From positions 26,870 through 90,869 of the forward strand of contig CALVYP010000002.1 of assembly GCA_944372365.1 (NCBI GenBank): DNA of 64,000 nt, written 5' to 3'. The translations under genes and the position numbers were made by a program. Numbering within the stretch: position 1 is the first letter of the stretch; each line of letters begins with the position of its first letter. Below the pieces are notes generated by a model. It was not told where the DNA came from, ran no database searches, and saw nothing but the letters and a program-made list of their open reading frames with translations. The stretch comes from an uncultured Clostridia bacterium. GTDB lineage: Bacteria > Bacillota > Clostridia > Christensenellales > UBA1242. Shown here piece by piece: positions 3,974 to 55,144 of the stretch.

Positions 3974-5020
3974 ATGTTGTATACTTTTGTTATGTCGAAG
4001 CAAAAAATTACACCTCAAACTTTTGAGAAAGCAAAGTTCTATAACCCGAAGGATATGGGGATTGCATACATATGCGCTTTGGTTGCGCCATATGTTATTT
4101 CGCTTTTGCTGTTTTTAGTGTGCCAACTCGTCATCTCATCGGGTGTTCCAAAGGACGATGTTTATGCAAATGTTGCTTACATAATTTTTGCAGCAATTTG
4201 CTCGCCAGCGGCACTTGCGATTATGTTTTTTGCGTTTAACAAGGTTAAAAAAGTGGAATTTTCAGCTGCAAAGGTCAAGTTTAAACTTAGCACGCTTAAT
4301 TTGATTGTATGTTTTGCCGTGTCGCTGATCAGCGTGTTTGGGCTTATGTATTTAATCGGTGGAGTGGATTATCTCCTGCAACAATGGGGATACGATCTGC
4401 AACAAATTTCGCTGCCGATGGACAATTTTGGTTGGTTGGTGCTTGCGCTGATTTTGATGGCTGCGCTTCCTGCCATCTTTGAAGAATTGGTGTTTAGAGG
4501 CATGATTTTAAACGGGCTTAGAAAGGGCATGAGCGATGTTTGTGCGCTGATCTTTTCATCGTTGATGTTTGCGCTTATTCACGGCTCAATTCAGCAGTTT
4601 ATCTATCCGTTTTTGCTTGGGCTTGTGCTTGGCTGGCTGGCAATGCGAACGGGGTCAACTTTCACAAGCATGCTTGTTCACTTTTTAAACAACGCCATCG
4701 TGCTTATCATCAATTATTTCTCGGTAAGACATGGGCTGGACATGACTGTGGCTTACACAAACGCTTGGGTTTGGGTTGTTGCAGTGGTGGTTGCTTTGGT
4801 TGCAGGCGCATTGTTGTTTGTTATTGAAAAGTTCTATTTCAAAGGCAAAAATCAAGACGAGCAGCCGCAAGAAGAGCAGCCTGAGCAAGCAAAACCTAAA
4901 AAACAAAAAACGCAACCTGCTTCAATTAAAAACATGCCGCTTTCATTTTGGATAAGCATAGGCGTGGCAGTTGTTTTGTGCATAATTGGCTCGGCGCTTG
5001 GTTTTATGCCTGCCGCTTGA
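3974..5020 (+). CDS. CPBP family intramembrane glutamic endopeptidase (CAAX protease-like)
   Basis: Polytopic membrane protein with the CPBP motifs EELVFRG, FALIH and HFLNN. It has a Q/E/K-rich C-terminal tail. Confidence 0.8.
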   Translation: MLYTFVMSKQKITPQTFEKAKFYNPKDMGIAYICALVAPYVISLLLFLVCQLVISSGVPKDDVYANVAYIIFAAICSPAALAIMFFAFNKVKKVEFSAAKVKFKLSTLNLIVCFAVSLISVFGLMYLIGGVDYLLQQWGYDLQQISLPMDNFGWLVLALILMAALPAIFEELVFRGMILNGLRKGMSDVCALIFSSLMFALIHGSIQQFIYPFLLGLVLGWLAMRTGSTFTSMLVHFLNNAIVLIINYFSVRHGLDMTVAYTNAWVWVVAVVVALVAGALLFVIEKFYFKGKNQDEQPQEEQPEQAKPKKQKTQPASIKNMPLSFWISIGVAVVLCIIGSALGFMPAA

Positions 5021-5027
5021 AAAATGA

Positions 5028-6164
5028 ATGTATATTAAACAAAGGGAATATAATATAAGCATGCTCGAACAAAAAAAATCGTTTAATAGTGCAATGTTGG
5101 CGTATTTTATCATCGTCATTTTGTTTGTCACGCTTAGGCTTCTTTCATCGTTTGGCTTGCTTTCGTTTATGGGGAATGCAGGCGACTATGTTTTCACGCT
5201 TGTTGTGCAAGTGCTGTTGATGTTTGGGTGCAGCGTTGTGCTTTATTCGGCGTTTAAAAAGCAAAAAATCAAACGCACTTTTGGTGAATATGGCGTTAAA
5301 AAAGTTTCGGGCAAAATTGTGCTTTTGTGCATTGCGCTCGGTGCGGTTGTATATTTTTTAAACACCTACGTTTCAAGTGCGTTTAACGGGCTTATAGGGC
5401 TGTTTGGCTACGAGCATTCATCGGGAACGCCAATTTATTCCTATTCATTTGGTTCGCTTATTGTCAATGTGATTTTCACTGCGCTTTTGCCGGCGATTTG
5501 TGAAGAAATTGCGCATCGCGGCATGCTTTTAAAATCACTTTCTCCACTTGGCGTAAGCAAGGCAATATGGATTTCAGCAATATTCTTTGGGCTTATGCAT
5601 TTAAATATAGAGCAGTTTTTCTATGCCACAATAATCGGGTTGTTTTTAGGGTTTTTAACGCTTGTTTCAAACTCAATTATTCCTGCGATGATCGTGCATT
5701 TTATGAACAACTTTTTAAGCACCTACCTTGTGTTTTCACAGGTAAACGGTCTGCCGATAGGAAGGGTTGTTATATGGTTTGAGAGCGTGCTTTCATCAAA
5801 TGTTTTTATAGCTGTAATTTTGACTATGTTGTTTATCGCTGTGCTGCTTTACTTGTTGTATTATCTCACTCGCAAAATTGGCTCGATGAGCTTGGAAAAA
5901 GACATCGCTCTTATGCAGCAAGAATTTGGCAGGCAGCTTTTAAGAGAAGCATATTTAATTGATCTTGAAAATGCCAAAAATCAGCTGACAGGAGAACAGC
6001 CACAAAGCGACTCGCTTGAACGGCTTAAACAGTTTGTTGTTTTTGATGATGGCGCAGTAAAAAACAAGTTTGTCATGCCAAAATATGGAAAGCTTTTGCT
6101 TGCGGTTACAATGGGGCTTGGCGTTGTGCTTACAATCTGCACATTTGTTTGGGGTGCGCTATGA
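5028..6164 (+). CDS. CPBP family intramembrane glutamic endopeptidase (second, tandem copy)
   Basis: Motifs CEEIAHRG, FGLMH and HFMNN in a polytopic membrane protein. The true start may be the internal ATG at 5061. Confidence 0.8.
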   Translation: MYIKQREYNISMLEQKKSFNSAMLAYFIIVILFVTLRLLSSFGLLSFMGNAGDYVFTLVVQVLLMFGCSVVLYSAFKKQKIKRTFGEYGVKKVSGKIVLLCIALGAVVYFLNTYVSSAFNGLIGLFGYEHSSGTPIYSYSFGSLIVNVIFTALLPAICEEIAHRGMLLKSLSPLGVSKAIWISAIFFGLMHLNIEQFFYATIIGLFLGFLTLVSNSIIPAMIVHFMNNFLSTYLVFSQVNGLPIGRVVIWFESVLSSNVFIAVILTMLFIAVLLYLLYYLTRKIGSMSLEKDIALMQQEFGRQLLREAYLIDLENAKNQLTGEQPQSDSLERLKQFVVFDDGAVKNKFVMPKYGKLLLAVTMGLGVVLTICTFVWGAL

Positions 6165-7387: not shown

Positions 7388-8353
7388 GTGAAAAAAACTT
7401 TTTCTGCCACCATGATTGTCATTGGCACGGTGATTGGCTCAGGTTTTGCAAGCGGCAAGGAGATAGCCGTGTTTTTTTCAAGATTTGGAATAGTGTCATA
7501 TTTTTTTATCGCGTTAACTTTTTTTGCTTTCTTCACAATAATATATGCATTTTTCAGTTTAGGCGAAAAAGCATTAAAAAAACTTGAAAAATCAAGGTTT
7601 TTTTCAATTATTTGCATAATTATTTCACTAATTTTCACTTCTTCCATGTTTGCAGGAACAATAAATGTGCTTCCAGAGAGCGTATTTCTAAAAATTTGTT
7701 TTGCACTAATTTTGTTGGTTGTATGCTGTCGGGTGTCTAAGCGCGGAGTGCCAATGCTTGCAAAACTAAACAATTTGCTTATACCCGCCACGCTTGTTTG
7801 CTTGCTTATTGTGTTGATTTCAAATTTCAAAGGTGCAAATTTAAGTGTAAACATAAACCAAAACGCGTTTGCAGGTTTGTTTTTTGCGGTGCTTTATTGG
7901 GTGTTAAATTTTTCAATCAGCGGTTTGGTTATTGCAAAAACAGGGCTTGAAATGACAAAAAGGCAAAAAGTTTTGGCAAGTTTTTTTTCAAGCCTAATTC
8001 TTTCAGCCTTTTTGCTTCTCACAAATTTTGTGATTCTTTCAAACCCCGAAAGCATGCAGCAGGGCATGCCGCTTGTGTTTTTATCCAGCGGAGTGATGTC
8101 GGTTTTAATAAAGTTTGTTGTTTTTTCAGGATGCATCACCACGCTTTTTTCATTGGTGTTTACAACCGCCGAAACACTTAAAAGATTTAATTTTTCGCAA
8201 AAAGCAATCTATTTTGTGTCGATAATTTTTCCAGCAGCCCTTTCGCTTTTTGGCTTTGGTGCGATTGTCAGTTTGCTGTATCCTTTTGCAAGTGTTTTAG
8301 GGTTTTTTCTTTTGCTTGTGCTGTTTTTTTCTCCTCAAAAAAATTCATCTTAG
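7388..8353 (+). CDS. YkvI-family membrane protein (transporter-like)
   Basis: 321 aa and polytopic. The N-terminus VIGTVIGSGFASGKEIAVFF matches the signature I know from Bacillus YkvI-type proteins. GTG start. Confidence 0.6.
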   Translation: MKKTFSATMIVIGTVIGSGFASGKEIAVFFSRFGIVSYFFIALTFFAFFTIIYAFFSLGEKALKKLEKSRFFSIICIIISLIFTSSMFAGTINVLPESVFLKICFALILLVVCCRVSKRGVPMLAKLNNLLIPATLVCLLIVLISNFKGANLSVNINQNAFAGLFFAVLYWVLNFSISGLVIAKTGLEMTKRQKVLASFFSSLILSAFLLLTNFVILSNPESMQQGMPLVFLSSGVMSVLIKFVVFSGCITTLFSLVFTTAETLKRFNFSQKAIYFVSIIFPAALSLFGFGAIVSLLYPFASVLGFFLLLVLFFSPQKNSS

Positions 8354-9171
8354 CGCTTGTGCCATTTTTCAAGCATGCAAATTGCAAAATACATAGCCGC
8401 TGCCAGCAAGCACAGCAAAACTGTGCTTGTCATAACCAGATCGATGTTAAAAATTTGGCTTCCATAAACGATTAAGTAACCCAAACCTGCACTTGATGAA
8501 AGATATTCACCCATAATAGTTCCAACCCAACTCATGCCGACGTTTATTTTTAAAACAGATATAAATTCATTTGTAGCGTTGGGGAGAATGAGCTTCCAAA
8601 AAATTTGGAATTTGTTTGCGTGCATAGATTTCATCAGTTGAATTTTATCTGTGTCGCAAGAGATAAACGCGTTAAGCATGGAAATTGTGGTTAAAACTAT
8701 GCATATAAGCACACACATTGTTATTATTGCGCTCATGCCAGAGCCAACCCAAAGGATAATAATAGGGCCAAGCGCAATTTTTGGAAGTGAATTTATCACC
8801 ACAATGTAAGGTTCTAGAATTTTTCTTAGTCGTCTGTTCCACCAAAGCAAAATTGCAATAAGCGTTCCGCCCAAAGTAGCGATCACAAAACCCACCAAAG
8901 TTTCAAGCAGGGTTATGCCAATATGTTGCCATATCGATCCATCTTGCACCATGCTTATAAACATATTAAACACTCTTGATGGGCTGCTAACGAAAAATGG
9001 ATCAACAACGCTGGTTGCTGCAAAAAGTTCCCATAAGCCAATTATTGCAACTAAAATTAAAATTTGAAAACAAATTACAAAAATTTTATCATTTGCAAGT
9101 TTTTTCAAATATTTTTCGTGCGCTTTGGAATATGGCGCAGCAGGTGATGGTTTAATCTTTTTGTTTTTCAT
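8350..9171 (-). CDS. ABC transporter permease (NitT/TauT-like importer family)
   Basis: 273 aa with about 6 TM helices. It overlaps the upstream ATPase gene, so the two are coupled. Pattern is typical of binding-protein-dependent permeases. Confidence 0.8.
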   Translation of the reverse strand: MKNKKIKPSPAAPYSKAHEKYLKKLANDKIFVICFQILILVAIIGLWELFAATSVVDPFFVSSPSRVFNMFISMVQDGSIWQHIGITLLETLVGFVIATLGGTLIAILLWWNRRLRKILEPYIVVINSLPKIALGPIIILWVGSGMSAIITMCVLICIVLTTISMLNAFISCDTDKIQLMKSMHANKFQIFWKLILPNATNEFISVLKINVGMSWVGTIMGEYLSSSAGLGYLIVYGSQIFNIDLVMTSTVLLCLLAAAMYFAICMLEKWHKR

Positions 9172-9925
9172 TAGTAAGTTTTTTCCATATCAAGTCAAAG
9201 TAGCTGCCAAAAGTTGGATCTTCGCGTCTTGATAGTGGAGTTTCTCCATTAAGATTTAGCATTTGCACATGTTTTACAGTGGCGGGGCGAGATGAAACCA
9301 CAATCACCTTATCCGACATTGAAATTGCTTCTGAGATGTCGTGAGTAACCAAAATTGCAGTTTTTTGTTCAGATTTGATTATTTGGTAAACATCGTCGCA
9401 AACTTTAAGCCTGGTTTGAAAATCAAGTGCTGAAAAAGGTTCATCAAGCAGCAAAAGCGTGGGTTGCATAACCAAAGTGCGAATAAGCGCAACACGCTGT
9501 CGCATTCCGCCACTTAAAGCTCGGGGCTTTGAAGAGATAAAGTCGTAGAGATCATATTTTTTTAGCAGGTCGCGTGCAAACTGCTTTTTTTTGTCAGCAT
9601 CTTTGGGCTTTGTCAGTTCAATTCCAAGCGTCACATTTTGCCAAATATTGCGCCATTCAAAAAGATGATCTCGTTGAAACATATAACCAATTTGTGAGTT
9701 TTTTGGCTCAATCTCTTTTCCGTTTAGCAATATTTGCCCCGAGCTTTTGTTTAAAAGCCCTGCAATCAACGATAGAATTGTGGTTTTGCCAGAGCCGCTT
9801 GGGCCAACAATTGATGTAAAACTTTGATTATCCACACAAAAGCTTAAATCTTTAAGTGCATGAATCTCTGCATTTTTTGTTTGATAAAAAAAATTAACAT
9901 CTTTAAATTCAAGCAGTGTGCTCAT
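9152..9925 (-). CDS. ABC transporter ATP-binding protein (NitT/TauT-like)
   Basis: Walker A GPSGSGKTT, signature LSGGMRQR, Walker B LLLLDEPFSALD and an H-loop VTHD. Confidence 0.9.
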   Translation of the reverse strand: MSTLLEFKDVNFFYQTKNAEIHALKDLSFCVDNQSFTSIVGPSGSGKTTILSLIAGLLNKSSGQILLNGKEIEPKNSQIGYMFQRDHLFEWRNIWQNVTLGIELTKPKDADKKKQFARDLLKKYDLYDFISSKPRALSGGMRQRVALIRTLVMQPTLLLLDEPFSALDFQTRLKVCDDVYQIIKSEQKTAILVTHDISEAISMSDKVIVVSSRPATVKHVQMLNLNGETPLSRREDPTFGSYFDLIWKKLTNEKQKD

Positions 9926-9989
9926 AAAAACCTCTACATAATCATTTTACTCACAACAACAAAATGTGTGAATAAGTTGGCACTCAAAT

Positions 9990-10019
9990 TTGAATTTGGC
10001 ATGCTTTGCGGGTTAAAAT
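9990..10019 (+). promoter_or_regulatory. Candidate sigma-A promoter for the phage-like module
   Basis: TTGAAT, a 17-18 nt spacer, then TAAAAT, about 30 nt upstream of the TTG start at 10049. Confidence 0.3.
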
Positions 10020-10048: not shown

Positions 10049-10360
10049 TTGAGTGATTTAAGTGAAGAAAAACTTAAAAAAGCCTTGCTGAAAAAAGCGC
10101 TCGGCTATGTTGCCAAGGAGCAGGTTTGCGAATACAGCATAGACGAAAACGGCGATGAAGTTCTTTCTAAAAAGAAAGTCACAAAAAAACAGCTTTCACC
10201 AGATCTTTCTGCTTTAAAAATTCTGCTTGAAAAATTTTATGGCGATTTTTCGGTGGAAGACATGAGCGATGAAGAGCTAGAGAAAGAAAAGTTTCGTCTT
10301 TTGCAACTTTTAAAAGAGGAGGAAGAAAATGCAAATAGAAAAATGCAAGAAACAAGTTAA
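10049..10360 (+). CDS. Putative phage small terminase-like / DNA-packaging accessory protein
   Basis: TTG start 4 nt after GGAGGGG. The 103-aa sequence LKKALLKKALGY..E...DENGDEV..KKKVTKKQLSPDLSALKILLEK resembles a TerS family seen in Firmicutes phages. It sits immediately upstream of the portal gene. Confidence 0.4.
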   Translation: MSDLSEEKLKKALLKKALGYVAKEQVCEYSIDENGDEVLSKKKVTKKQLSPDLSALKILLEKFYGDFSVEDMSDEELEKEKFRLLQLLKEEEENANRKMQETS

Positions 10361-10547
10361 GTGCGACTTTATTGGTTGCAACAATCTTGCTGATTATTCT
10401 TTCAGCACAAAAGGGTTGATTAGAAGAGAGCTGTCGTTTTGCAACGATTGTTTAAAGGGCATGTATCAAGAAATTGCAAAACTGCAAGTTCCAAAGCCAA
10501 CAACATCGCCATTTAAATTAAAACAAAGGTTGAAAAAGGAGAAATAA
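10329..10547 (+). CDS. Small Cys-rich (zinc-ribbon-like) protein
   Basis: 72 aa with a strong SD GAGGAGGA. Cys pairs CKKQVKC..GC and CNDC, plus a basic C-terminal tail. It occupies the slot where TerL normally sits. Confidence 0.5.
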   Translation: MQIEKCKKQVKCDFIGCNNLADYSFSTKGLIRRELSFCNDCLKGMYQEIAKLQVPKPTTSPFKLKQRLKKEK

Positions 10548-12421
10548 TGAAAAAGATGACTAAACAAGAACAGGAGATTGTAAAATTTGTTCAAGATGAT
10601 TTTGCCGTAAGGCAATATGCTCGCAAGCCGCTTGAAACTCAGTGGCTGATGAATATGAATTTTTACATGGGCAATCAGTTTTGCAACATAGGCTACGGCG
10701 GGATGCTTGAAGATCTTGACAAACAATACTTTTGGCAAGAGAGAGAAATTTTTAATCACATCGCGCCGGTTGTAGATTTAAGACTTGCAAAACTTGGAAA
10801 AATCAAACCAGTTGCAACTGTGCAGCCTGCATCAAATGATGAGCAAGATGTTTTTGCTGCCAAGGTGTCGAAAAAGATTTTAGACAGCACATTCAGCAAG
10901 TTGCAATTAAACAAAAAAATCATTCAAGCCATTGGGTGGAGTGAAATTTGCGGCACAAGTTTTTACAAGTTGAGTTGGGATATCCAAGCAGGTCAGGTTG
11001 TGGCACAGGATAAAGACGGCGTAGACATTAGAAGCGGCGAAGTTGATGTCACTGTTTGCTCACCATTTGAAATTTATCCAGACAGTTTGACATGTGAAAA
11101 TATTCAAGATTGCCAAAGCATAATCCATGCCAGAGCGATGGATGTGGGCGAAATTAAAGCCAAATACAACATGGATTTGGATGGCGAAGATTTAAACATC
11201 TTCTCACTTTCATCAACAAGCGTTGGGATTGGCGGACTTGGCTACTCGTCTGCCGCGCCAAAAATCACACAAGGCGTCAAAACCAACAGCGCACTTGTGA
11301 TTGAAAGATATCAAAAGCCGTCACCAGATTTTCCAAACGGCAGACTTACTATTGTTGTGGGCAACCAGCTGTTTTTCGATGGCGATTTGCCGTATGAAAT
11401 TGGCTGCGACGGAGCGAGAAGCTTTCCTTTTATTAAGCAAGTGTCTTTAAATCAGGTTGGCAGTTTTTGGGGAACAAGCGTCATCGACAGGCTTATTCCA
11501 GTGCAAAGGGCATACAACGCGGTAAAAAATCGCAAGCACGAGTTTATCAATCGTCTTACAATGGGCGTGCTGGCTGTTGAAGATGGCTCGGTTGACATAG
11601 AAAACCTTGAAGACGAAGGGCTTTGCCCAGGCAAGATTTTGGTTTATAGGCAGGGTGCATCCGTTCCAGAATTTTTGCAGGGCGAAAACCTGTCGGGCAG
11701 CTTTGATGAAGAAGAAGACAAGCTGCTTGCCGAGTTTAAGGATATAAGTGGAGTAAATCAGGTGTTTAATGGCAGCTTTACATCTTCAAACATATCAGGC
11801 ACAGCGCTTGAACTTATGCTTGAACAGGATGAACTCAGGCTGAATAACAGCGCAGAGAACATCAAGCAGTGCGTTAAAAATGCGGCACAGATGATTTTAA
11901 ATTTATACAAACAGTTTGCTCTGCTTCCGCGTCTTGCAAGAATTGTGGGCGATAATGGAGAAGTTGAATTGTTTTACTTTAATGCAAGCGACATTTCAAG
12001 CGATGACATCCAGTTGGAGACGCAGGTCGACTTAGGTGAAAGTGTTGCTCAGCGCAGGCAGATGGTGTTCAACTTGATTGATAAAGGCCTGCTTAACGAT
12101 CAAAACAACACTATGAGCAAAAAGATGAAAATTAAAGTGCTGCAACTTTTGGGGCTTGGCATATGGGAAAACGCGCAGGATACGGGTGAGCTTCACATCA
12201 AAAAGGCAGACAATGAAAATTTAAAACTATACAAAAATCAGCCAGTGAAAGTTTGCGAAATTGATGATCACGAATTGCACATCGACAGGCACATCGCATT
12301 TATGCTTGGCGGAGATTATGAAGAGCAACTCATTCAAGACAGCGCGCTTGAAGAAAGATTTTTGCAGCATATAAACCAACACAAAAAATTGTTAAAACAA
12401 AAAAATGAGGAGGTAAAATAA
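10547..12421 (+). CDS. Phage portal protein
   Basis: 624 aa. The N-terminal pattern RKPLETQWLMNMNFYMGNQF is the typical portal W..N..FY.GNQ motif. It sits directly before the scaffold and capsid genes. AAGGAG SD. Confidence 0.72.
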   Translation: MKKMTKQEQEIVKFVQDDFAVRQYARKPLETQWLMNMNFYMGNQFCNIGYGGMLEDLDKQYFWQEREIFNHIAPVVDLRLAKLGKIKPVATVQPASNDEQDVFAAKVSKKILDSTFSKLQLNKKIIQAIGWSEICGTSFYKLSWDIQAGQVVAQDKDGVDIRSGEVDVTVCSPFEIYPDSLTCENIQDCQSIIHARAMDVGEIKAKYNMDLDGEDLNIFSLSSTSVGIGGLGYSSAAPKITQGVKTNSALVIERYQKPSPDFPNGRLTIVVGNQLFFDGDLPYEIGCDGARSFPFIKQVSLNQVGSFWGTSVIDRLIPVQRAYNAVKNRKHEFINRLTMGVLAVEDGSVDIENLEDEGLCPGKILVYRQGASVPEFLQGENLSGSFDEEEDKLLAEFKDISGVNQVFNGSFTSSNISGTALELMLEQDELRLNNSAENIKQCVKNAAQMILNLYKQFALLPRLARIVGDNGEVELFYFNASDISSDDIQLETQVDLGESVAQRRQMVFNLIDKGLLNDQNNTMSKKMKIKVLQLLGLGIWENAQDTGELHIKKADNENLKLYKNQPVKVCEIDDHELHIDRHIAFMLGGDYEEQLIQDSALEERFLQHINQHKKLLKQKNEEVK

Positions 12422-13029
12422 TGCAAGAAGAAATTGTTAAGGAACAACCATCTTTAGAACAGGCGAATGCTGAAAATTCAGCGCTGCAAGAGAGCGCCGC
12501 TAGTCAAGAAGGCTCCTTAAAAGAAGAAAGCTTTGGAAAGTTTAAGTCTGCCTCGGCACTCTTAGATGCATATAAGGCGCTTGAGGCAGAATTCACACGA
12601 AAAAGCCAGCGGCTTAGCGAACTTGAAAAAAACTTAGAGCAAGCAACTCCTGACGAGCAAAACATCGACAGCGAACTTGCATCTTTTCTTTCAACACACA
12701 GCGACGCAGCACCATACGCTCAAAAGCTTAAAGATTTAAGTTTGCAGGGCGGAGGGAAAATAAATTTTGAGCAGCTTTGGGCAAAATGTTTGATCGATGA
12801 ACTTGGCTCGGAGCAATCAAAACTTGAAAACCCTATAATCAAACAATATGTAATAAATGATGAAGAACTTAAAAAATATGTCATCGAAAATTACATGAAA
12901 AATCTTAATGCAAAAAAACCACCACTTCTCATCAGCGGCGAGAGTGGCGAAAAAGTAACCGGTCAAAAGCCGGTTACGCCAACCTCGCTGAAAGATGCTA
13001 AAAAATTGGTGGAGCAAATGTTTAGTTAA
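12421..13029 (+). CDS. Putative capsid scaffolding protein
   Basis: 202 aa, acidic and predicted helical/coiled-coil. Located between the portal and major capsid genes, with an ATG overlapping the portal stop (TAATG). Confidence 0.5.
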   Translation: MQEEIVKEQPSLEQANAENSALQESAASQEGSLKEESFGKFKSASALLDAYKALEAEFTRKSQRLSELEKNLEQATPDEQNIDSELASFLSTHSDAAPYAQKLKDLSLQGGGKINFEQLWAKCLIDELGSEQSKLENPIIKQYVINDEELKKYVIENYMKNLNAKKPPLLISGESGEKVTGQKPVTPTSLKDAKKLVEQMFS

Positions 13030-13041
13030 TAGGAGGAAATT

Positions 13042-14271
13042 ATGGTTACATTAGAAACCGCTGACAACGCGCTTAAAAGTGTTTATCTTGGCGTGGTTGC
13101 AAATCAACTTAATGTTTCATCCAACCCACTTTATGCAAAAATCAAACGCTCAAACAAAGATATTTGGGGCAAGGAAATAATCAAACTTGCGCCTTATGGA
13201 ATCAACGGCGGCATAGGGGCTGGCTCTGAAACAGGCTCGTTGCCTGCCGCATATGAAAACAAATATGTGCAATTTAAGGCAACACTTAAAAACCTTTATG
13301 GCAGAATTGAAATCAGCGACAAGGCTATTCGCTCTTCTGCAAACAATATTGGTGCGTTTGTAAATCTTTTAACAGACGAAATGGAAGGGCTTATCAAAGC
13401 AAGCTCATTCAACCTTGGCAGAATGCTCTACGGCGACGGAACAGGCATTTTAGCACAAGCAACTGCTGCAAGCAACAATGTTGTCACATGTAATAAAGTA
13501 AACAACCTTATTGAAGGCATGGTGGTAGATTTTTACAACGATTCTGCTCCATATTTAACAAAAGCGAGGATTGAGTATGTTGACAGGGTAAACAAAAAAA
13601 TCACAATCGACAAAAATTTAACAATGCCTTCATCTTCAAATTTGGATATTTATATTCAAACATCGATAAACCGCGATATAACTGGGCTTGGCGCAATCTT
13701 TTCAAACTCAACCACGCTTTACGGCGTAAACAGAGCAGAACATCCATGGCTTAGCCCGTATTCATCAAGCGTTGAAACAGAAATCTCAGACAACCTTATC
13801 CAAACAGCAATCGACTTTTTGGAAGAAAATGCAGATTCAAGAATCAACTTTATCGCATGTTCAAGCGCTGTTAGAAGGGCTTATCAGCAATATTTGACAG
13901 CTTACAGAACAAACATCGATATAATGAATCTTGAAGGCGGGTTTAAAGCAATCTCTCACAACGGCATTCCGCTTGTTGCAGATAGATTTGTTGATGAAGA
14001 CACAATGTATTTGCTTAACACTGATGATTTTACTTTGCATGAGCTTTGCGACTGGACATGGCTTGAAGGCGCTGATGGCAGAATTTTAAAGCAAGCAAAT
14101 GTGCAGCCAATTTACACAGCGTCTCTTGTAAAGTATGCTGAACTTATCTGTGACAAACCAAATGGACAGGCTAAAATCAGCAAAATTAAATCAACAGTTA
14201 CAAATCCATTTTTGCCAGCAGACGACAGCGAAAACCAAAGCCAAGCTTCTGGCGACAACACACAAGGTTAA
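13042..14271 (+). CDS. Phage major capsid protein (HK97-fold type)
   Basis: 409 aa. The pattern LYGRIEISDKAIRSS...FVNLLTDEMEGLIKA...LGRMLYGDGTGILA is typical of major capsid proteins. Strong SD AGGAGG. A strong terminator follows. Confidence 0.72.
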   Translation: MVTLETADNALKSVYLGVVANQLNVSSNPLYAKIKRSNKDIWGKEIIKLAPYGINGGIGAGSETGSLPAAYENKYVQFKATLKNLYGRIEISDKAIRSSANNIGAFVNLLTDEMEGLIKASSFNLGRMLYGDGTGILAQATAASNNVVTCNKVNNLIEGMVVDFYNDSAPYLTKARIEYVDRVNKKITIDKNLTMPSSSNLDIYIQTSINRDITGLGAIFSNSTTLYGVNRAEHPWLSPYSSSVETEISDNLIQTAIDFLEENADSRINFIACSSAVRRAYQQYLTAYRTNIDIMNLEGGFKAISHNGIPLVADRFVDEDTMYLLNTDDFTLHELCDWTWLEGADGRILKQANVQPIYTASLVKYAELICDKPNGQAKISKIKSTVTNPFLPADDSENQSQASGDNTQG

Positions 14272-14274
14272 CAG

Positions 14275-14306
14275 GCAAGGGGTGAATTTTCGCCCCTTTG
14301 CTTTTT
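14275..14306 (+). terminator. Rho-independent terminator after the capsid gene
   Basis: GCAAGGGG...CCCCTTTGC stem followed by TTTTT. Confidence 0.55.
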
Positions 14307-14317
14307 AAGGAGAAAAA

Positions 14318-14632
14318 ATGAAAAACCAAATTTTGCTTGACTGCGATCCATTTTATATTTCAAGCCGAATTAAAGAAGTGGATGAAAATTATTTTATTGT
14401 TTTTAACACAGCTCGCAATGCATATGAATTGCACAGCAGTGCGCAAATTGGCAGCACTTACGCTCTCACAATTCCTTATTCGCAGCTTGATGAGCGAACA
14501 ATTTTTTTGGCACGCAAAACGCGCAAACAAAACTTTGACAAACTCATCAGGCAGATGGATGAAGAAAATCAAAGGCTGCAAAACAGTAAAATAAAAGATG
14601 CGGTTTTGCAAATAAAAGAGGTGTTTAAATGA
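14318..14632 (+). CDS. Hypothetical protein of the phage-like module
   Basis: 104-aa ORF with an AAGGAG SD. Its stop overlaps the next start. Confidence 0.5.
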   Translation: MKNQILLDCDPFYISSRIKEVDENYFIVFNTARNAYELHSSAQIGSTYALTIPYSQLDERTIFLARKTRKQNFDKLIRQMDEENQRLQNSKIKDAVLQIKEVFK

Positions 14633-15180
14633 AAATTAACGATATTATTCAACTTTGTTGCGATTTTTTAGGCGAAAACAGTTTAAAAACGCTTGTTGGC
14701 ACAAGTTCTGGTGACGATGTTCAAAAAGCCAAACTCAGCGCAATGCTAACATGCCTAAACCTTGCCTATGAAGAAATTGTGACGGAATATCTTCCAATCC
14801 TTTACACACAAACTGTTTCGGTGCAAGATGGAGTTGTAAATTTTTCAAGCCTTGCAAAACCTATCAGTGGAATTTGCTCAGTCAAAGATGAAGATGGGGC
14901 GCAGATAAACTATCTTCAATCCGCCGATCACATCAATGTAAACGCCAAACAGGTGCAAATCACCTATCAAATTGTGCCAGACAAATTTGAGTTTGGCGAC
15001 GAAGTTAAGGTGATTTTCCCTGACAGGCTGCTTGCTTACGGCACTGCAAGAGAATATTTGTTTATGCAAGGGCTTTCTGAGGAAGCGCTGATGTATGAAA
15101 AACGATTTAAGGATGCACTTATAAACTTTGTGCGAAAAAAATCTCCGCTTACGCTTGCAAAAAGGCAATGGCAAAATTAG
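14629..15180 (+). CDS. Putative head-tail adaptor/connector protein
   Basis: 183 aa. Position and size are comparable to the adaptor proteins of P22-like (gp4) and T7-like (gp11) podoviruses. Assigned by synteny only. Confidence 0.35.
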   Translation: MKINDIIQLCCDFLGENSLKTLVGTSSGDDVQKAKLSAMLTCLNLAYEEIVTEYLPILYTQTVSVQDGVVNFSSLAKPISGICSVKDEDGAQINYLQSADHINVNAKQVQITYQIVPDKFEFGDEVKVIFPDRLLAYGTAREYLFMQGLSEEALMYEKRFKDALINFVRKKSPLTLAKRQWQN

Positions 15181-15189
15181 GAGGTGAGT

Positions 15190-16659
15190 ATGTTTTACAA
15201 AAAAAGCCTTACCACTAAGCAAAACAAGCCGTTAAAAATCCGATTTGATAAGTTTGACGAGTGGAAAAGCGAAAACAAAGGCGATTTGCAGATAAATCAA
15301 GCCGAAAGTTGTTATAATTTTGCTTTTTCAAATGGGCAGCTCAGCCCGAGCTACGGCTTTGAGCAGCTGACTTTGCCAGTTTCGCTGGGCGGACAGGAGC
15401 AAACATTCAACCTAAACGCAACCGAAATTTTGCAAGCGTGGTTTTTCCCGATGTATGATAATTTTGACAATTGCGACAAATATTATGTGTTTTTTCTAGC
15501 TCAAGACATGAAAATTTACTTTTTCAATGTGCTTGATGAAAAATACATCTATCCAACAGATGCCACCTTTACGCAAATTCCAAACGGCGCTGCGTTTAGA
15601 ATAAACGGCGATAATGACACAATGTTTTTTGCTTCAAGCACCGATCAAACAGTTGGATTAAACGGGCTTGGCTATCAAGTTTATCAAAACATTCCAAAGT
15701 TTGTTTCTGGGTGTTGGTTTGGTCCATATTTCTTTTTGCTGACGATTGGCGACAACAATCAGCTGCAATACAGTCAAAGCAGAATTGACATTTGGAACGA
15801 TGACAACGTTACAAAAGCGCCGCTTGCCGACATTCGCGGTGGAATGACCAAACTTATTGCGTTAAAAGATTATCTGTATCTTTTCACAAACTATGGCATA
15901 ACCAGACTTTCACTTTACAGCTCAAGCGCAGATGTTGCCGAAACGCATGTATATCACTCGTCATCCTATATATATCCTTCGTCGATTTCCAAACACGGCG
16001 AAGAAATTGTGTTTTTGTCGGGCGACGGACTTTATCGTCTTAAAGGCAGCAGCGTCACCAAAATTGATTTGCCGTTTTCACAAAACATAACTTCGCAGGA
16101 TAACAGCAAGTGCAGCGGTGTGTGCTTTGACGGGAAATACTTTTTAGCGTGCAAATATAATTTTGCAGACGATCAAACGGTTGGTTGCGAAAGTCAGGAT
16201 TATGTAAACAACGCAATGGTTGTATATGATCTTGCAACGGGTGAGTTTGAAGTTGTTCGCGGAATCGACATCAACCAACTTTTTGCTTTGCAAGCTCCAA
16301 AAGCAAACAAACTTTGCGCGCTTTTTAGGGGCGAGAAAAAGGCGTTGATTGGTCAGCTTACTCACGACGGCAAATTTTTTGGAAGTCCGCTTGCCAAAAG
16401 ATGGGTTTCTGCGCAAACAGATTTTGGATATGCCGAAAACCAAAAATGCATAACCGAAGTTATTGTTCGTCCAAACACACAGGGTACAATAACAATTTGC
16501 TCTGAAAAAGAAAGCCAAAGCATTCAGGTTGCAAACTCAACCCAATGCACGCGATTTAGGCTGAGAATATACGGCAAAATTTTTTACTTGACTTTTGATT
16601 GTCAACAGCAATCTGTAAATATTTCATGCCCGCAACTTACAGCAGAGGTTATTTCGTGA
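15190..16659 (+). CDS. Putative tail hub / nozzle-like structural protein
   Basis: About 489 aa from the ATG 6 nt after AGGAGG. Beta-rich and Gly/aromatic-rich, with no NTPase motifs. Position and size are comparable to P22 gp10. Assigned by synteny only. Confidence 0.35.
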   Translation: MFYKKSLTTKQNKPLKIRFDKFDEWKSENKGDLQINQAESCYNFAFSNGQLSPSYGFEQLTLPVSLGGQEQTFNLNATEILQAWFFPMYDNFDNCDKYYVFFLAQDMKIYFFNVLDEKYIYPTDATFTQIPNGAAFRINGDNDTMFFASSTDQTVGLNGLGYQVYQNIPKFVSGCWFGPYFFLLTIGDNNQLQYSQSRIDIWNDDNVTKAPLADIRGGMTKLIALKDYLYLFTNYGITRLSLYSSSADVAETHVYHSSSYIYPSSISKHGEEIVFLSGDGLYRLKGSSVTKIDLPFSQNITSQDNSKCSGVCFDGKYFLACKYNFADDQTVGCESQDYVNNAMVVYDLATGEFEVVRGIDINQLFALQAPKANKLCALFRGEKKALIGQLTHDGKFFGSPLAKRWVSAQTDFGYAENQKCITEVIVRPNTQGTITICSEKESQSIQVANSTQCTRFRLRIYGKIFYLTFDCQQQSVNISCPQLTAEVIS

Positions 16660-16724
16660 AAATGTATGACAGATGTTCTTCAAAATTTTTAAAAAAACTT
16701 TTTGTTAAAGGAGAAAACAATGAG

Positions 16725-16940
16725 ATGAAAAGTTTATTGCAAGATATCGTTAAAGATGAAAGTGGAAAAAATTTAGTCTCTTCAAATTTGTTTGAAAAAC
16801 AAAAACAAGCATACGAGGCAACAGTTGAGTTTTTGAAGCATTTTGATAAAACAGTTGCTTTAAGTTTTGTGCAAACAAACGCACAACTGCGTGGCGAGCT
16901 TGGAATTTTTTACGATAAACTTATCAGTGAGTTGCAGTGA
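16725..16940 (+). CDS. Hypothetical small protein
   Basis: 71-aa ORF from an ATG preceded by AAGGAG. Predicted helical. Confidence 0.45.
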   Translation: MKSLLQDIVKDESGKNLVSSNLFEKQKQAYEATVEFLKHFDKTVALSFVQTNAQLRGELGIFYDKLISELQ

Positions 16941-17194
16941 TGAGTTTATGGCAAGATATTGTTAGTGTAATAATCAGCAACGGCATATTTGCAATTTTGT
17001 TTGTGGCGTTGTTTGTTTATCAACTAAAAGACAGCAAAAGGCGAGAAGAAAAATATCAGCGCACAATAGACGAACTCAGCGCGCACATCGGCATTGTGGA
17101 AAAAATTAAAGAAGATGTTGAATATCTCAAAGAAATTGTCACTCCAAAAAGGAGAAGAAAAAATGAAGATAAAAAACTTGATATGCTCATATAG
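16937..17194 (+). CDS. BhlA/UviB-family holin-like protein
   Basis: 85 aa. The single N-terminal TM plus SNGIFAILFVALFVYQLKDSKRREEKYQRTIDEL matches the BhlA/UviB pattern (QG.FA.LF..L..Y....KERE.KY). Confidence 0.65.
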   Translation: MMSLWQDIVSVIISNGIFAILFVALFVYQLKDSKRREEKYQRTIDELSAHIGIVEKIKEDVEYLKEIVTPKRRRKNEDKKLDMLI

Positions 17195-17402
17195 TTTTTG
17201 GACGGCGCTTGCAGGGGCGCTTGCTATGCTTGGCAGCGCCATTGGCAAAGCGTTCAGCGTTGACATTGAAGGGCAAACAATCGCCGACATTGTCATGAGT
17301 GTGGCAAGTGTTTTGGTTGCGGTTGGTATAATCAGCTTACCAAAAAAACAAACCCAAACATCTGATCAGGACAAAAACAATCAAAAAGATGAGCAAAAAT
17401 AG
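17163..17402 (+). CDS. Holin-like two-TM protein (phi LC3 / SPP1 holin-like)
   Basis: 79 aa from an ATG preceded by AAAGGAG. It has two hydrophobic helices and a charged, Q/K/D-rich C-terminal tail. It overlaps the previous gene. Confidence 0.5.
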   Translation: MKIKNLICSYSFWTALAGALAMLGSAIGKAFSVDIEGQTIADIVMSVASVLVAVGIISLPKKQTQTSDQDKNNQKDEQK

Positions 17403-17439
17403 CAAAAAGGGGGCAAAAAGCCCTCTTTTTTAATAATTA

Positions 17440-17468
17440 TTGACTTTTCTTTTGTTTTGTGGTATACT
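17440..17468 (+). promoter_or_regulatory. Candidate sigma-A promoter
   Basis: TTGACT, a 17-nt spacer, then TATACT with an upstream TG (TGGTATACT), about 19 nt upstream of the ATG at 17487. Confidence 0.45.
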
Positions 17469-17486: not shown

Positions 17487-17990
17487 ATGATTCAAGACAC
17501 AACAAGGCCACAGGCGCTTGACGAAAAATTTATAAAAAAATTGCAAGAAGTTCACATGCCAGATTCCACTGGCTGCGCATATGTTTTGTTGTCGCAGTAT
17601 GGCATAACTCACAAGGTTAACGCAGTTTATGATTTTAAAAATCATATGCTTCGCGACGATGTTGTGCCGCATTTTAGTAGGGAAACAAAAATCTCTGTTC
17701 CAGATATATGCACCAAAGAAGATGCCGGGCTGTATAGAGCGGCTTATGCAGAAGTTTGCGTAAATGGTGCGGATGGGCTGAAAAATTTAAATTGCAAATT
17801 AAACGCTCACCAGTTGGCGGTTGTTGAAATGGCATTTGCAAATGCGAAGGAGATATATTTAAAAAACCAGCCAATCAAACCAAATTGCTCGCTTTCGGCA
17901 AGACCAGAAGAATACAGCCAGCAGGCAAGAGATGAGATGGAAAAGCGCGGCAATGAAATTTTAAGAAATCATGGCATTGAAATAGATTAA
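17487..17990 (+). CDS. Hypothetical cytoplasmic protein
   Basis: 167-aa ORF with a GGGGG SD and its own promoter and terminator. No motif recognised. Confidence 0.6.
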   Translation: MIQDTTRPQALDEKFIKKLQEVHMPDSTGCAYVLLSQYGITHKVNAVYDFKNHMLRDDVVPHFSRETKISVPDICTKEDAGLYRAAYAEVCVNGADGLKNLNCKLNAHQLAVVEMAFANAKEIYLKNQPIKPNCSLSARPEEYSQQARDEMEKRGNEILRNHGIEID

Positions 17991-43900: not shown

Positions 43901-44193
43901 TAGTAGGTGTTGGCCGAGTAGCGCTCAAAATCCGACTGCACATCGATTGCCATGGTTTTAGCACTTGTGTTGCCCCAGTTTCTTGTCCAACCAGAAAAAT
44001 CTCCATCGGTGTATGAAGATGAAGTTGCGTCAAAGCTTGAGTTGGTTATTGTAACACTTTCGCGATGTTCGCCATCAAAGGAAGATGCTTTAACAAGCAT
44101 GTTAGTTGGAAGCGCTGCCATAAGCCCCAAAGGAAGCATAATGGCAACAATTAAAATAAAAATAATTGAAAGTAAAGATTTTCTTTTAGTCAT
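40969..44193 (-). CDS. Large surface protein: signal peptide, repeated CBM/galactose-binding-like beta-sandwich modules, C-terminal TM helix and a cytoplasmic coiled-coil tail
   Basis: 1074 aa with an N-terminal signal/anchor. It has 5-6 modules of about 150 aa, each ending in an aromatic-FFD[NE] type motif (VVFFDEV, AVVIDNI, YAFFDNF, YAFLTDI). An acidic Thr/Asp linker follows, then the TM LWLLIPSIILALALIFAIVAFAL, then a K/E/Q-rich heptad-like tail of about 130 aa. Confidence 0.8.
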   Translation of the reverse strand: MTKRKSLLSIIFILIVAIMLPLGLMAALPTNMLVKASSFDGEHRESVTITNSSFDATSSSYTDGDFSGWTRNWGNTSAKTMAIDVQSDFERYSANTYYLKNNPGKVGSDNKILMINSANTNPNSDNFAPKEISEGYISNSISLSANSYYEFSVAMKTTSFSESNNTFGSIYISGLIDENDQAVDVQIEAETATDWTVYYFYIATGSQDQAVQVELWLGTNQRPSTGVVFFDEVCAQQLSENAYYKNIQLNQQSGVDCVVAGDINDATIIDTSSLNFDFEKSLDGVVNNLVDWKVDSTGVNGYAQILPLNQGIFESTTNFTYPGSDFSANNTQALTLWAEDGFVKVESLPLEIKSLGLYKITFNVKISEITQGEFTISLNETDDIKNQFSYLSSYTLGSKTSSAITENGSDKFINEYAQVEFYVQGHDRYDSQIQIAFNLGSSQNYASGAVVIDNIIVEVVDSENFSTEGNVLQLATATASETTFKNGYFNSAKNQTNTLDKPVAPADWTITQPDNAGVKKAGIINVYSKYFDEYDYDWSENLANPGSPDEYSSTDDVNNILMLYNENANYQSISSSTFELTANTYYTLTFKYKTLADAWFNLQITDSNSIQLLNQQNIASGEWKTYQCQIFTGEGASTASLTIEFGNQDNLVSGYAFFDNFIISESSEQAFESAEVQIDLSGFMLNLDANNQIGNNITSFNAFTGKIDSGNSNSAKGGVIKGAGNDAFKYVNSNGEFPIDDGSLTKNVLAIQTDLPATYTLTSNFPVAAKAETQYYALTFRLLTSFPSFDGVHMHDDEEVDTTFGVSIGISGFDKVEGLKASDGWQEFTILFSVTEDSDASFTFSLISDCLDTTGYAFLTDIAWNASDAETYNQANRQEAFGSTLFTATATAATEDDDDSATDDTTTQPEDGNNDETLWLLIPSIILALALIFAIVAFALRHVKIKKSAKVEKQKYDRDESLHADIITNQAKEIQNAEIAKIDEHIASIKAQIAEIEEDNKQTIAKAREHGKVTGAVEKQFKTFASKRAALQKSVDQLEEHKAFVQTKDYLISIEKRILASKKKQAKQTKQPKQ

Positions 44194-54420: not shown

Positions 54421-54457
54421 AGATTTATAATATCATTTTTTTATAATTTTTACAAAT

Positions 54458-54487
54458 AAAAAAAACGGCATATCGCCGTTTTTTTTA
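54458..54487. terminator. Bidirectional terminator
   Basis: ACGGC-ATATC-GCCGT, flanked by A7 and T8. Confidence 0.55.
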
Positions 54488-54501
54488 ATCTTTAAAGTGT
54501 T

Positions 54502-55131: not shown

Positions 55132-55144
55132 ATTTTATCTCCTT

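Follow-up and report, generated by a model that had tools for sequence, protein, structure and literature searches.

A podovirus-derived, vertically inherited split locus of gut Clostridia as a candidate gene-transfer-agent-like element

In the genome of an uncultured Clostridia bacterium, eleven genes of podovirus head, tail and holin type (locus A) lie within the 64-kb stretch of DNA that we analysed (the window, 64,000 nucleotides), and a large terminase (TerL) is encoded in a second locus (locus B) about 49 kb downstream in the same strain, just past the window end. Sequence comparisons indicate that locus A is ancient, chromosomally fixed and vertically inherited in hundreds of species of gut Clostridia. 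We hold it to be probable, with moderate confidence, that loci A and B, or these together with more loci, constitute a podovirus-derived, chromosomally fixed element resembling a gene transfer agent (GTA).

Locus A consists of eleven co-directional ORFs with intact reading frames on the + strand (window 10049-17402; Table 1). The coordinates in an earlier note on this DNA were verified, together with the stop/start overlaps that join g2 to the portal gene (10547), the portal gene to g4 (12421), g6 to g7 (ATGA, 14629) and g9 to g10 (16937). Host genes flank the locus: to its left lie those for an ABC ATPase and a permease, to its right rpsT, gpr and groEL. This agrees with the position between an ABC transporter and rpsT-gpr described earlier, and a terminator-like hairpin was found after the capsid gene, where a terminator had been placed. 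As the note had reported, no integrase, replication, fibre or lysin gene was found in locus A, nor were a repressor or primase; a repeat check of the locus gave no att-like repeat, and there is no tRNA within the 64-kb window. The region upstream of g1 picked out by a consensus scan may, we infer, act as a promoter. The motif TGGCA[CGT]-N6-TTGA was present at -54 to -79 in 35/83 orthologous upstream regions and occurs once in the window, where one occurrence is expected by chance at that stringency.

Table 1 Features of locus A, in window coordinates
Feature	Coordinates	Strand	Basis
Promoter-like region upstream of g1	9978..10019	+	TGGCAC-N6-TTGAAT(-35)-N18-TAAAAT(-10), consensus scan
g1, truncated small-terminase-like protein, 103 aa	10049..10360	+	phrog_309 TerS 5e-5
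g2, Cys4 zinc-ribbon-like protein, 72 aa	10329..10547	+	Conserved position
g3, portal, 624 aa, P22/SU10 type	10547..12421	+	PF16510 P22_portal 5e-17
g4, scaffold-like protein, 202 aa	12421..13029	+	Position and composition only
g5, major capsid protein, 409 aa, HK97-type	13042..14271	+	phrog_14242 major head protein 1e-54
Terminator-like hairpin after capsid gene	14277..14298	+	9-bp stem, 5 GC pairs, T run
g6, conserved protein, 104 aa	14318..14632	+	Position after capsid gene
g7, head-to-tail adaptor-like, 183 aa	14629..15180	+	Foldseek on AF2 model; directly upstream of nozzle
g8, podovirus tail nozzle/hub, 491 aa, beta-propeller	15184..16659	+	Fold
g9, remnant of DUF7934 gene, 71 aa	16725..16940	+	PF25588 DUF7934 positions 275-323
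g10, BhlA-family holin, 85 aa	16937..17194	+	PF10960 4e-15, phrog_2429 1e-13
g11, second holin-like membrane protein, 79 aa	17163..17402	+	PF04531 Phage_holin_1
Terminator-like hairpin closing operon	17404..17431	+	After last holin

The first gene, g1, starts with a TTG at 10049 preceded by a GGAGGGG Shine-Dalgarno sequence and, with a dN/dS of ~0.03, is among the best-conserved genes of the locus. The family phrog_309 was matched by 32/35 g1 orthologues (best 9e-8). The earlier description of this ORF as TerS-like holds in part: the profile search aligned g1 only to positions 195-244 of 319, some 50 in all, and in relatives the gene is located between TerL and portal, that is, downstream of TerL and not upstream. 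In work of 2019 by Sherlock et al., the TerS of the agent RcGTA reportedly lacks a DNA-binding domain, a parallel to the truncated g1. The product of g2 matched no family in Pfam or PHROGs; its reading frame is unbroken in 68/68 loci and its position unchanged in IMG/VR relatives. The portal, with more than 5900 homologues, also matches PF23899 SU10_portal (8e-8) and phrog_156 (2e-39), and g4, for which there was no family match, sits between portal and capsid genes in every case and is the fastest-evolving core gene (dN/dS 0.2-0.34). The tblastn matches of g5 were major capsid proteins of Jasminevirus podophages of Arthrobacter, the nearest catalogued phages (portal ~24% and capsid protein ~27% identity). 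Searches of Pfam, PHROGs and the PDB with g6 gave no match; this gene keeps its place 3' of the capsid gene as far out as the distant phage-like contigs L128-L154, and its product is a candidate head-completion or decoration protein.

The block had been called a head/neck module, which fits its head genes but not the 491-aa ORF g8, by its modelled fold a podovirus tail nozzle. The AF2 model of g8 (pLDDT 87, pTM 0.89) matched the Pa223 tail (9nwi_Y, E 2e-20) and VP1 (8zkk_O, TM 0.72) when compared with the PDB by Foldseek, with further matches to GP4, the SU10 nozzle (7z47_G), P22 gp10 (8eap_D) and T7 gp12; a profile match to the SU10 nozzle (E 0.009) and hhalign (E 2.6e-4) gave the same assignment. 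Nothing matched g7 at the sequence level. Its single-sequence AF2 model is of low confidence (pLDDT 62), and the top 8 Foldseek matches, all weak (E 3e-3 to 3e-2, TM 0.3-0.37), were all phage adaptor/connector chains (Pa223, crAss001, P1, SU10), making a head-to-tail adaptor probable. Like P22-, SU10-, Pa223- and VP1-like modules, locus A has a PF16510/PF23899 portal and runs portal-scaffold-capsid-adaptor-nozzle, upholding the earlier comparison to P22/T7-type morphogenetic blocks, but unlike these modules it has no tailspike or fibre, no ejection proteins and only a remnant of the gene in the needle position, and its TerL is displaced.

That remnant is g9. All ORFs had been described as intact, which applies to ten of them, whereas g9 corresponds to the C-terminal part of a DUF7934 gene of ~300 aa, with a match to the 333-position profile at E 4e-4, below cut-off. 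A full-length DUF7934 gene (~300 aa) follows the nozzle gene in the loci L056 (1e-36) and L085 (9e-43); g9 was detected in only 7 loci, and the DUF7934 gene is absent across most of the clade. The DUF7934 protein is possibly a tail needle or plug, and its loss or reduction may mean that tail function is degenerating. Of the two holin-like proteins that the note had placed at the block end, g10 was found in 68/68 loci, and g11, with its ATG at 17163 in an ORF that opens at 17094, gave a marginal match to Phage_holin_1 (3.6e-4, 21.5 bits versus a cut-off of 22) that was equally weak for its relatives.

The earlier note also held that TerL is missing. It is indeed absent from the block and from anywhere in the 64-kb window, but it is present beyond the window in the same genome. 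An overlapping sequence (L172; window 52486-64000, 99.98% identity) extends into a TerL of 477 aa that matches PF03237/PF17289 and phrog_2 (5e-28). Direct reading of this protein points to GGNRSGKS as its Walker A and VWFDEE as its Walker B motif, with ISIDPG and DDHALDELRY as nuclease motifs; the ATPase and nuclease motifs are apparently retained. Locus B spans the window-equivalent of about 65.0-70.2 kb; a late-activator-like gene (DUF1492, ArpU/RinA-like) precedes TerL, a membrane-anchored surface protein of 786 aa is encoded after it, and a divergent SH3-like membrane protein is also encoded. When traced by exact sequence, portal, capsid protein and TerL co-occur in identical samples, and the longest contig for each is of 250,882 bp, which suggests that all three are on one shared contig. 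The stretch of about 49 kb between the loci holds core host genes, groEL, gyrB/gyrA, RNase J and metG among them. Of the 4853 TerL homologues, many come from contigs 200-630 kb long, where their surroundings are conserved and not those of a prophage. The module is therefore not an orphan, as a conserved TerL and a phage-type late activator are found on the same chromosome. No promoter motif common to the g1 and TerL upstream regions was found, so their co-regulation is hypothetical.

Gene order in relatives shows that loci A and B were formerly contiguous. In IMG/VR relatives, whose portals are 40-51% identical, the genes run TerL-g1-g2-portal-scaffold-MCP-g6-g7-g8, and in L115 activator-like and SH3-like genes lie upstream as well. 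Intermediate states are also seen: in L056-type loci TerL is followed by a protein of ~800 aa and next by g1, and L079 has TerL and g1 separated by ABC transporter genes. Because TerL is directly upstream of g1 in the distant relatives, a single ancestral element was split.

Matches were found in 366 species genomes, and we fetched and compared 80 species representatives, plus metagenome loci. The gene order of locus A was identical in 80/80 fetched genomes, all of Christensenellales-type gut Clostridia, and in the metagenome loci; in the 80 genomes its chromosomal neighbourhood was also constant, at portal identities down to 54%. The large genes are unbroken in 68/68 loci, and dN/dS ranges from about 0.03 to 0.34 over locus A, similar to flanking housekeeping genes, these values being approximate because dS is saturated. 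Pairwise portal identity followed that of the adjacent ABC ATPase (Pearson 0.92, 62 genomes), a correlation equal to that between two host genes. The GC content of fetched loci spans 26% to 45%, and in many species the element is split in the same way, with host genes to either side. Together, the constant order, low dN/dS and portal/ABC co-divergence argue for vertical inheritance and domestication. These comparisons, which the note had proposed, bear out its view that function is maintained rather than decaying. Such conservation reveals selection for some function, not for gene transfer specifically.

Of the three products that had been proposed, a GTA-like particle is the most favoured, given the synteny, selection, co-divergence and lack of mobility genes; with TerL present 49 kb away in the genome, such particles are the most likely product. 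The late activator of locus B would turn on late genes, procapsids would be assembled from scaffold, capsid protein and portal, and TerL with g1, TerS-like and without a DNA-binding domain, would fill heads with cellular DNA with no sequence specificity. Adaptor and nozzle would then close the portal, forming a very short tail, and the holins would release particles together with a host autolysin or with a lysin whose gene lies elsewhere. The element is passed on vertically and kept through selection on the host; with essential host genes between the loci and no replication or integration genes, it cannot spread as a virus.

This arrangement resembles FpGTA of Faecalibacterium prausnitzii (Nat Commun 2026, PMC12946183), which is likewise chromosomal and near-ubiquitous within its clade of Gram-positive gut Clostridia, comprises at least two separate loci without replication or integration genes, and has a putative TerS that lacks a DNA-binding domain; the two are likened by gene content, namely TerL, portal, scaffold, capsid protein and short-tailed-phage proteins. 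FpGTA was judged most likely podovirus-like though tails were not seen (PMC12946183). The host orders differ (Christensenellales-type versus Oscillospirales), and, unlike in FpGTA, TerL is apart from the head genes, the holins are within the head locus, the TerS-like gene is ancestrally downstream of TerL, and no tail fibre, receptor-binding or endolysin gene was identified in the window or locus B. FpGTA is backed by electron microscopy, proteomics and packaged DNA (PMC12946183), whereas loci A and B are known from sequence. RcGTA, too, is a domesticated, vertically inherited phage structural cluster under purifying selection, with several loci, a truncated TerS and no self-transmission (see also the introduction of PMC12946183). 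RcGTA is siphovirus-like and long-tailed, has TerL inside the head-tail cluster, bears no sequence relationship to loci A and B and is regulated by CckA-ChpT-CtrA/GafA, whereas in podovirus-like locus A/B an ArpU/RinA-like activator adjoins TerL.

A domesticated particle with a selected function other than gene transfer is a less probable reading that still deserves weight, since the conservation and selection data suit any host-beneficial role equally. Possible forms are PBSX-like killing or altruistic lysis (packaging with no delivery), a DNA-release or biofilm factor, and a protein or nucleic-acid container. Both holins are kept in every locus. Delivery may be impaired, since genes for a fibre or receptor-binding protein were not seen and the DUF7934 gene downstream of that for the nozzle has been lost. 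PBSX of Bacillus subtilis, also of Firmicute phage origin, packages host DNA, has a sigma-like late activator (Xpf) and lyses through holins. Loci A and B likewise have a Firmicute phage origin, a late activator and holins, packaging being only proposed for them; PBSX is a contiguous ~28 kb myovirus-like cluster whose particle has a contractile tail and kills in the manner of a bacteriocin, whereas loci A and B are podovirus-like, ~12 kb in total and split. Podovirus tails are not known to carry a PBSX-like contractile killing apparatus, which counts against a killer. The highly conserved TerL, the portal and the nozzle point instead to packaging and a closable exit channel; a compartment would require neither TerL nor nozzle, and the repurposed compartment proposed earlier is unlikely because these, the portal and the adaptor-like protein are all kept. 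FpGTA itself was left as either DNA delivery or PBSX-like (PMC12946183).

Neutral decay of a defective prophage, its intactness owed by chance to recent integration, would account for the missing integrase, replication, fibre and lysin genes, the g9 remnant and the distant TerL, but is very improbable given the constant order and neighbourhood at such divergence, the dN/dS of every gene well below 1, the unbroken large ORFs and the GC range. Slightly more improbable still is a satellite, one of the earlier proposals, in which a cf-PICI-like island makes its own capsids and takes terminase, tails and lysis from a helper: the small head-gene set, which includes a TerS-like gene but lacks fibres, resembles cf-PICIs superficially, yet these are mobile, helper-induced and self-packaging, with integrase, att sites and a replication module, none of which locus A has, and its position is fixed, it co-diverges with host genes, its nozzle and TerL are its own chromosome's, and loci A and B could not co-excise or be co-packaged. 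An ordinary functional temperate podophage with its remaining genes beyond the window, where TerL did turn up, is scarcely credible with ~49 kb of core host genes between the loci in a split that recurs in many species.

GTA-like packaging, with fragments of ~4.1 and 6.3 kb, has been published for Christensenellaceae MAGs, where it was not assigned to a gene cluster (PMC12946183). If the GTA-like reading is correct, this packaging may be due to loci A and B.

The eleven ORFs between window positions 10049 and 17402 (g1–g11) run in one direction with tight or overlapping junctions, beginning with a TTG start codon for g1 at 10049 that has the ribosome-binding site GGAGGGG in front of it. Family scans with Pfam and PHROGs assigned four of them (portal g3, major capsid protein g5 and two holins; see the table), and terminator-like hairpins are present at two sites, 3′ of the capsid gene and 3′ of the last holin. 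With a P22-like portal, an HK97-type capsid protein and a beta-propeller nozzle, the block has the features of a P22/SU10-type virion module. To its left lie an ABC transporter ATPase and permease, and to its right a fast-evolving 167-aa ORF followed by rpsT, gpr and groES/groEL; the remaining window holds housekeeping genes (gyrB/gyrA, RNase J, iPGM, metG, murG and others). Neither replication nor lysogeny-control genes came up when the whole window, block and flanks included, was scanned with Pfam and PHROGs, and the block encodes no tailspikes, fibres or tail needle/plug. A large terminase (TerL) was likewise not found in the window, whether each large ORF was compared with Pfam or TerL proteins of five types served as tblastn queries.

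The 167-aa ORF (17487–17990, +) has its own promoter-like site (17440–17468), terminators on both sides and no family matches. It is 37–46% identical in the closest relatives, compared with 75–90% for its neighbours, and most members of the clade lack it. Possibly it is a rapidly evolving gene of accessory or moron-like type. Elsewhere in the window we noted two tandem paralogous genes for Rce1-like CAAX proteases (348 and 378 aa; 3974–6164, +) and a 1074-aa ORF (40969–44193, −) without a Pfam or PHROGs match.

Structure prediction assigned one further ORF. The AlphaFold2 model of g8 (491 aa), built from 16 homologues, reached a pLDDT of 87 and a pTM of 0.89, and the PDB entries that it matches best all belong to tail nozzle or hub proteins of podoviruses: Pa223 (E 2e-20, TM 0.68), VP1 (TM 0.72), GP4, the SU10 nozzle, P22 gp10 and T7 gp12. 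A sequence profile of g8 also reaches the SU10 nozzle (E 0.009; hhalign E 2.6e-4). Given this nozzle/hub fold, the block encodes a short tail beyond head and neck, so that its earlier description as a head/neck module holds for the head and falls short at the tail. For g7 (183 aa), a low-confidence single-sequence model (pLDDT 62) gave eight top Foldseek matches that are all phage head-to-tail adaptors, those of Pa223 and SU10 included; because the scores are weak, we regard g7 as a probable head-to-tail adaptor only. Direct hhalign comparison of g7 with the SU10 adaptor was negative, 42 g7 orthologues showed no consistent PHROGs match, and PDB profile searches with g1, g6 and g7 returned chance matches only.

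The match of g1 (10049–10360) to a small-terminase (TerS) PHROG spans about 50 of 319 profile positions, and 32 of 35 g1 orthologues match TerS phrog_309 in its central segment only. We therefore interpret g1 as a truncated TerS-like protein without the N-terminal DNA-binding domain. Similarly, g9 (71 aa) matches only the C-terminal end of DUF7934, and relatives carry a full-length DUF7934 gene (~300 aa) 3′ of the nozzle (1e-36 in L056 and 9e-43 in L085, two related contigs), which identifies g9 as a gene remnant. No relatives of known function were detected for g2 (a Cys4 protein), g4 (scaffold-like) or g6.

Looking up the last complete gene of the window led to a contig, L172, that matches window positions 52486–64000 at 99.98% identity and runs on past the window end. 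It contains a second locus (locus B; L172 12201–17761, window-equivalent about 64686–70246) that encodes TerL, a DUF1492 protein (p170), a divergent SH3-like membrane protein (p265) and a surface protein (p786), with dinB 3′ of p786. Looked up as exact sequences, the portal, the capsid protein and TerL turn up together in the same samples, and the longest contig for each is 250,882 bp, consistent with all three lying on one shared NCBI contig of that length. The terminase is thus not missing: the element is split in two, with ~49 kb of essential host genes between the halves. The earlier note had reported an orphan block of co-directional phage ORFs lacking integrase, replication genes and TerL, and had suggested looking for TerL elsewhere in the genome. 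Its account of the window was accurate and the block is real, but walking off the window end located the gene that the orphan reading took to be absent.

Phage-derived features of locus A (window) and locus B (window-equivalent coordinates)
Feature	Position	Strand	Family matches and features
Portal, P22/SU10-type	10547–12421	+	PF16510 5e-17, PF23899 8e-8, phrog_156 2e-39
Major capsid protein	13042–14271	+	phrog_14242 1e-54
BhlA-family holin	16937–17194	+	4e-15
Second holin, marginal	17163–17402	+	PF04531, 21.5 bits vs cut-off 22
tRNA-Leu(CAA)	64686–64771	−	
p170, 170 aa	65047–65559	+	DUF1492; phrog_36, phrog_248 (phage transcriptional activators)
p265, divergent SH3-like membrane protein, 265 aa	65529–66326	−	
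TerL, 477 aa	66390–67823	+	PF03237, PF17289, phrog_2 5e-28
p786, 786-aa surface protein	67886–70246	+	Signal peptide, C-terminal membrane anchor

These searches establish the identities of the portal, capsid protein, nozzle, holin, TerL and activator family. As read from its sequence, TerL apparently retains the Walker A, Walker B and nuclease motifs, and p170 is predicted by its family to be a late activator of the ArpU/RinA kind. The p786 protein is fast-evolving. At the C terminus, both p265 and p786 have a transmembrane segment and, after it, a short basic tail that includes a motif with tyrosine (KDYY..., DDYKKFYY). The tRNA-Leu(CAA) is the break point of several assemblies.

Upstream of locus B, the window encodes a 204-aa and a 1948-aa protein (56018–62475, +), both membrane-anchored, without a Pfam or PHROG match and in DNA of raised GC (46–49%), and a 430-aa membrane-anchored GDSL/SGNH hydrolase (62486–63778, +) 2.6 kb upstream of the TerL locus. 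Peptidoglycan is a substrate of some SGNH hydrolases. A ~130-aa domain of the 1948-aa protein (40% identity) is common to p786 and other large surface proteins of related genomes; this domain is the sole link of the 1948-aa protein and the hydrolase to the element, no conserved synteny having been detected for them as members.

Upstream of the block, a TGGCAC-N6-TTGA motif lies 5′ of g1 only; it is found in none of 34 TerL upstream regions and matches the window once, no more than expected by chance. No promoter motif common to the g1 and TerL upstream regions was found. Just 5′ of the TGGCAC/−35 element of the g1 promoter, a second motif, TGTGTGAATAA (window 9940–9975, TGTGA core), shows conservation across many of the orthologous loci; a regulator may bind there.

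Related loci reveal how the two halves were once joined. In IMG/VR contigs whose portals are 40–51% identical, the order is TerL-g1-g2-portal-scaffold-MCP-g6-g7-g8, which places g1 and g2 ancestrally between TerL and the portal; one of them (L115) has an ECF-sigma/HTH-like gene and an SH3-like gene just upstream of TerL. Two arrangements are intermediates. One GTDB subclade (L056, L060, L062, L076, L080 and L082) has TerL, a secreted membrane-anchored ~800-aa protein and then g1, and in L079 ABC transporter genes lie between g1 and TerL with its ~800-aa protein. Among 4853 TerL homologues, the best 120 share 79–100% identity with the TerL of L079, on contigs of up to 634 kb. Three of them show the same kind of separate chromosomal locus, in the order sigma-r4-like, divergent ~262 aa, TerL, ~830 aa, orphan NMT1-type solute-binding protein, leuS. 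The transporter beside g1 (window 8350–9925, −) consists of ATPase and permease without a solute-binding protein, and in relatives the TerL locus has an orphan NMT1-type binding protein next to it (L166–L168, about 14230–15250, −); this separation looks like the footprint of a rearrangement that split a transporter operon and the phage-derived element alike.

True phage relatives are only distant. IMG/VR contigs with 31–40% portal identity carry fibre genes 3′ of the nozzle, L132 being an example, and the portals of Jasminevirus podophages of Arthrobacter are ~24% identical. In a 67-kb IMG/VR contig (L112, 5986–12191), TerL-g1-portal-scaffold-MCP is followed by a Dcm methylase, a MORC-like ATPase and an Mrr/ResIII helicase-nuclease in place of g6–g8, the tail genes having been replaced by a defence island. 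Many short ‘viral’ IMG/VR contigs among L085–L137 have the same type of element (TerL-g1-g2-portal and onwards, plus holins) and no tail-fibre genes, and may have entered the virus catalogue although they are domesticated elements of their hosts.

We found more than 5900 portal homologues, of which those 57–84% identical lie on 200–650 kb contigs of uncultured Clostridia. When GTDB was scanned with a single genome for each species, 366 genomes matched, and all 80 loci fetched from them, together with four metagenome loci, have the order g1-g2-portal-g4-MCP-g6-g7-g8-(g9)-holin-holin, most of the fetched loci with the same ABC transporter directly upstream. Record names of carriers include Christensenellaceae, Christensenella sp. 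and Candidatus Caccovivens, the last being GTDB genus UBA11517 of the order Christensenellales (PMC8035907). GC content of the fetched loci ranges from 26% to 45%. A tblastn-based count over the 68 loci long enough to contain the entire block found g2, the portal, the capsid protein, g7, g8 and BhlA without interruption in every one; apparent ‘stops’ in g1 and in the L029 portal proved to arise where alignments ran past the ends of genes. In comparison with the three closest genomes, block genes had dN/dS values of 0.03–0.34 and the adjacent host genes (ABC transporter, rpsT, gpr and groEL) values of 0.04–0.21, all approximate as dS is saturated. Pairwise identities of the portal and the adjacent host ATPase correlate over 62 genomes (Pearson 0.92), as strongly as those of two host genes. 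The GC spread, intact ORFs, low dN/dS and co-divergence with the host ATPase mark the block as an old, vertically inherited, selected element, and together these comparisons establish its ancestral contiguity, conservation, selection and co-divergence with the host.

The element fits what defines a gene transfer agent (GTA) or, more cautiously, a domesticated particle (viriform), because it combines TerS-like, TerL, head, adaptor-like, nozzle, holin and activator genes, lacks replication, integration and lysogeny genes, occupies split loci and has been fixed and under purifying selection throughout an order-level clade. Three GTA features are present: chromosomal structural genes of phage origin, unaccompanied by genes for integration, replication or lysogeny control; vertical inheritance and purifying selection across a host clade; and a gene set divided between loci that core host genes separate. 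On this model, p170 would control both loci, virus-like particles would be made from the element's gene products, TerL with g1 would package random host DNA, the holins would release the particles and the packaged DNA would be delivered to recipients. Joint carriage of both loci in one small capsid is predicted to be ruled out by the ~49 kb spacing.

A function other than transfer, whether PBSX-like lysis or killing or DNA release, stays a serious rival because no endolysin, fibre or RBP gene occurs in the window or locus B, the DUF7934 gene 3′ of the nozzle has been lost and the two loci share no promoter motif. A phage satellite or cf-PICI, as the earlier note had entertained, was rejected, as the block and both flanks contain no integrase, replication/primase module or helper-responsive regulator; the note's repurposed capsid compartment also found no support, and its proposal of a GTA-like particle is the one favoured by gene content, split loci, conservation and purifying selection. 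An ordinary integrated prophage was rejected because no integrase was found in the block, flanks, rest of the window or locus B contig (Pfam/PHROGs), the window has no tRNA, the block has no flanking att-like repeats (direct repeats were low-identity AT-rich chance matches) and other TerL loci do not conserve the tRNA-Leu beside locus B, which had been considered a possible remnant of an attachment site. Conserved order, intact ORFs, dN/dS and co-divergence contradict a decaying prophage: patchy distribution and inactivating mutations, named in advance as signs of decay, were not found in relatives (same order in 80/80 fetched loci, uninterrupted in 68/68), so the view of a maintained block was upheld, and the claim that all ORFs are intact holds for the large ORFs and fails for g9.

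Among systems described so far, FpGTA of Faecalibacterium prausnitzii comes closest by its published description. Both occupy two loci and have a TerS-like protein without a DNA-binding domain (PMC12946183). FpGTA was judged most likely podovirus-like although its particles have no visible tails; its capsids measure ~40 nm and its packaged DNA ~8.5–9 kb (PMC12946183). The same study reported GTA-like packaging of ~4.1 kb and 6.3 kb fragments in Christensenellaceae MAGs (HGM11616, QANA01), with the genes not identified (PMC12946183). Our element is an obvious candidate gene set for this packaging. No Faecalibacterium annotation emerged among its relatives from GC screening of IMG/VR contigs or from a cluster-name look-up for the high-GC L143, and full-text searches found no description of the cluster in the literature. 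We tentatively propose, leaning slightly towards doubt on the reading as a whole, an order-wide podovirus-type GTA family in Christensenellales that was fixed before hundreds of gut species diversified, was then split into head/nozzle/holin and regulator/TerL/surface-protein loci, and is the source of the 4–6 kb GTA-like packaging in Christensenellaceae from human faecal VLP fractions.

To our knowledge, gene sets are known for few gene transfer agents, nearly all of them in Alphaproteobacteria. The first example from a gut Firmicute, FpGTA, was reported in 2026 (PMC12946183). The cluster described here, conserved in at least 366 species-level genomes, is a concrete and testable candidate, and it documents the domestication of a podovirus in which fibres and needle were lost, TerS was truncated and TerL became physically separated. 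The gut lineage that carries it is abundant, health-associated and mostly uncultured. Virus-prediction catalogues of the IMG/VR type include contigs of this kind (for example L085–L137) that possibly belong to the host and are not viral. Our results offer a specific, widely conserved gene set for a GTA-like activity so far without assigned genes in an important gut lineage; if functional, the element would be a major route for chromosomal gene flow in the gut.
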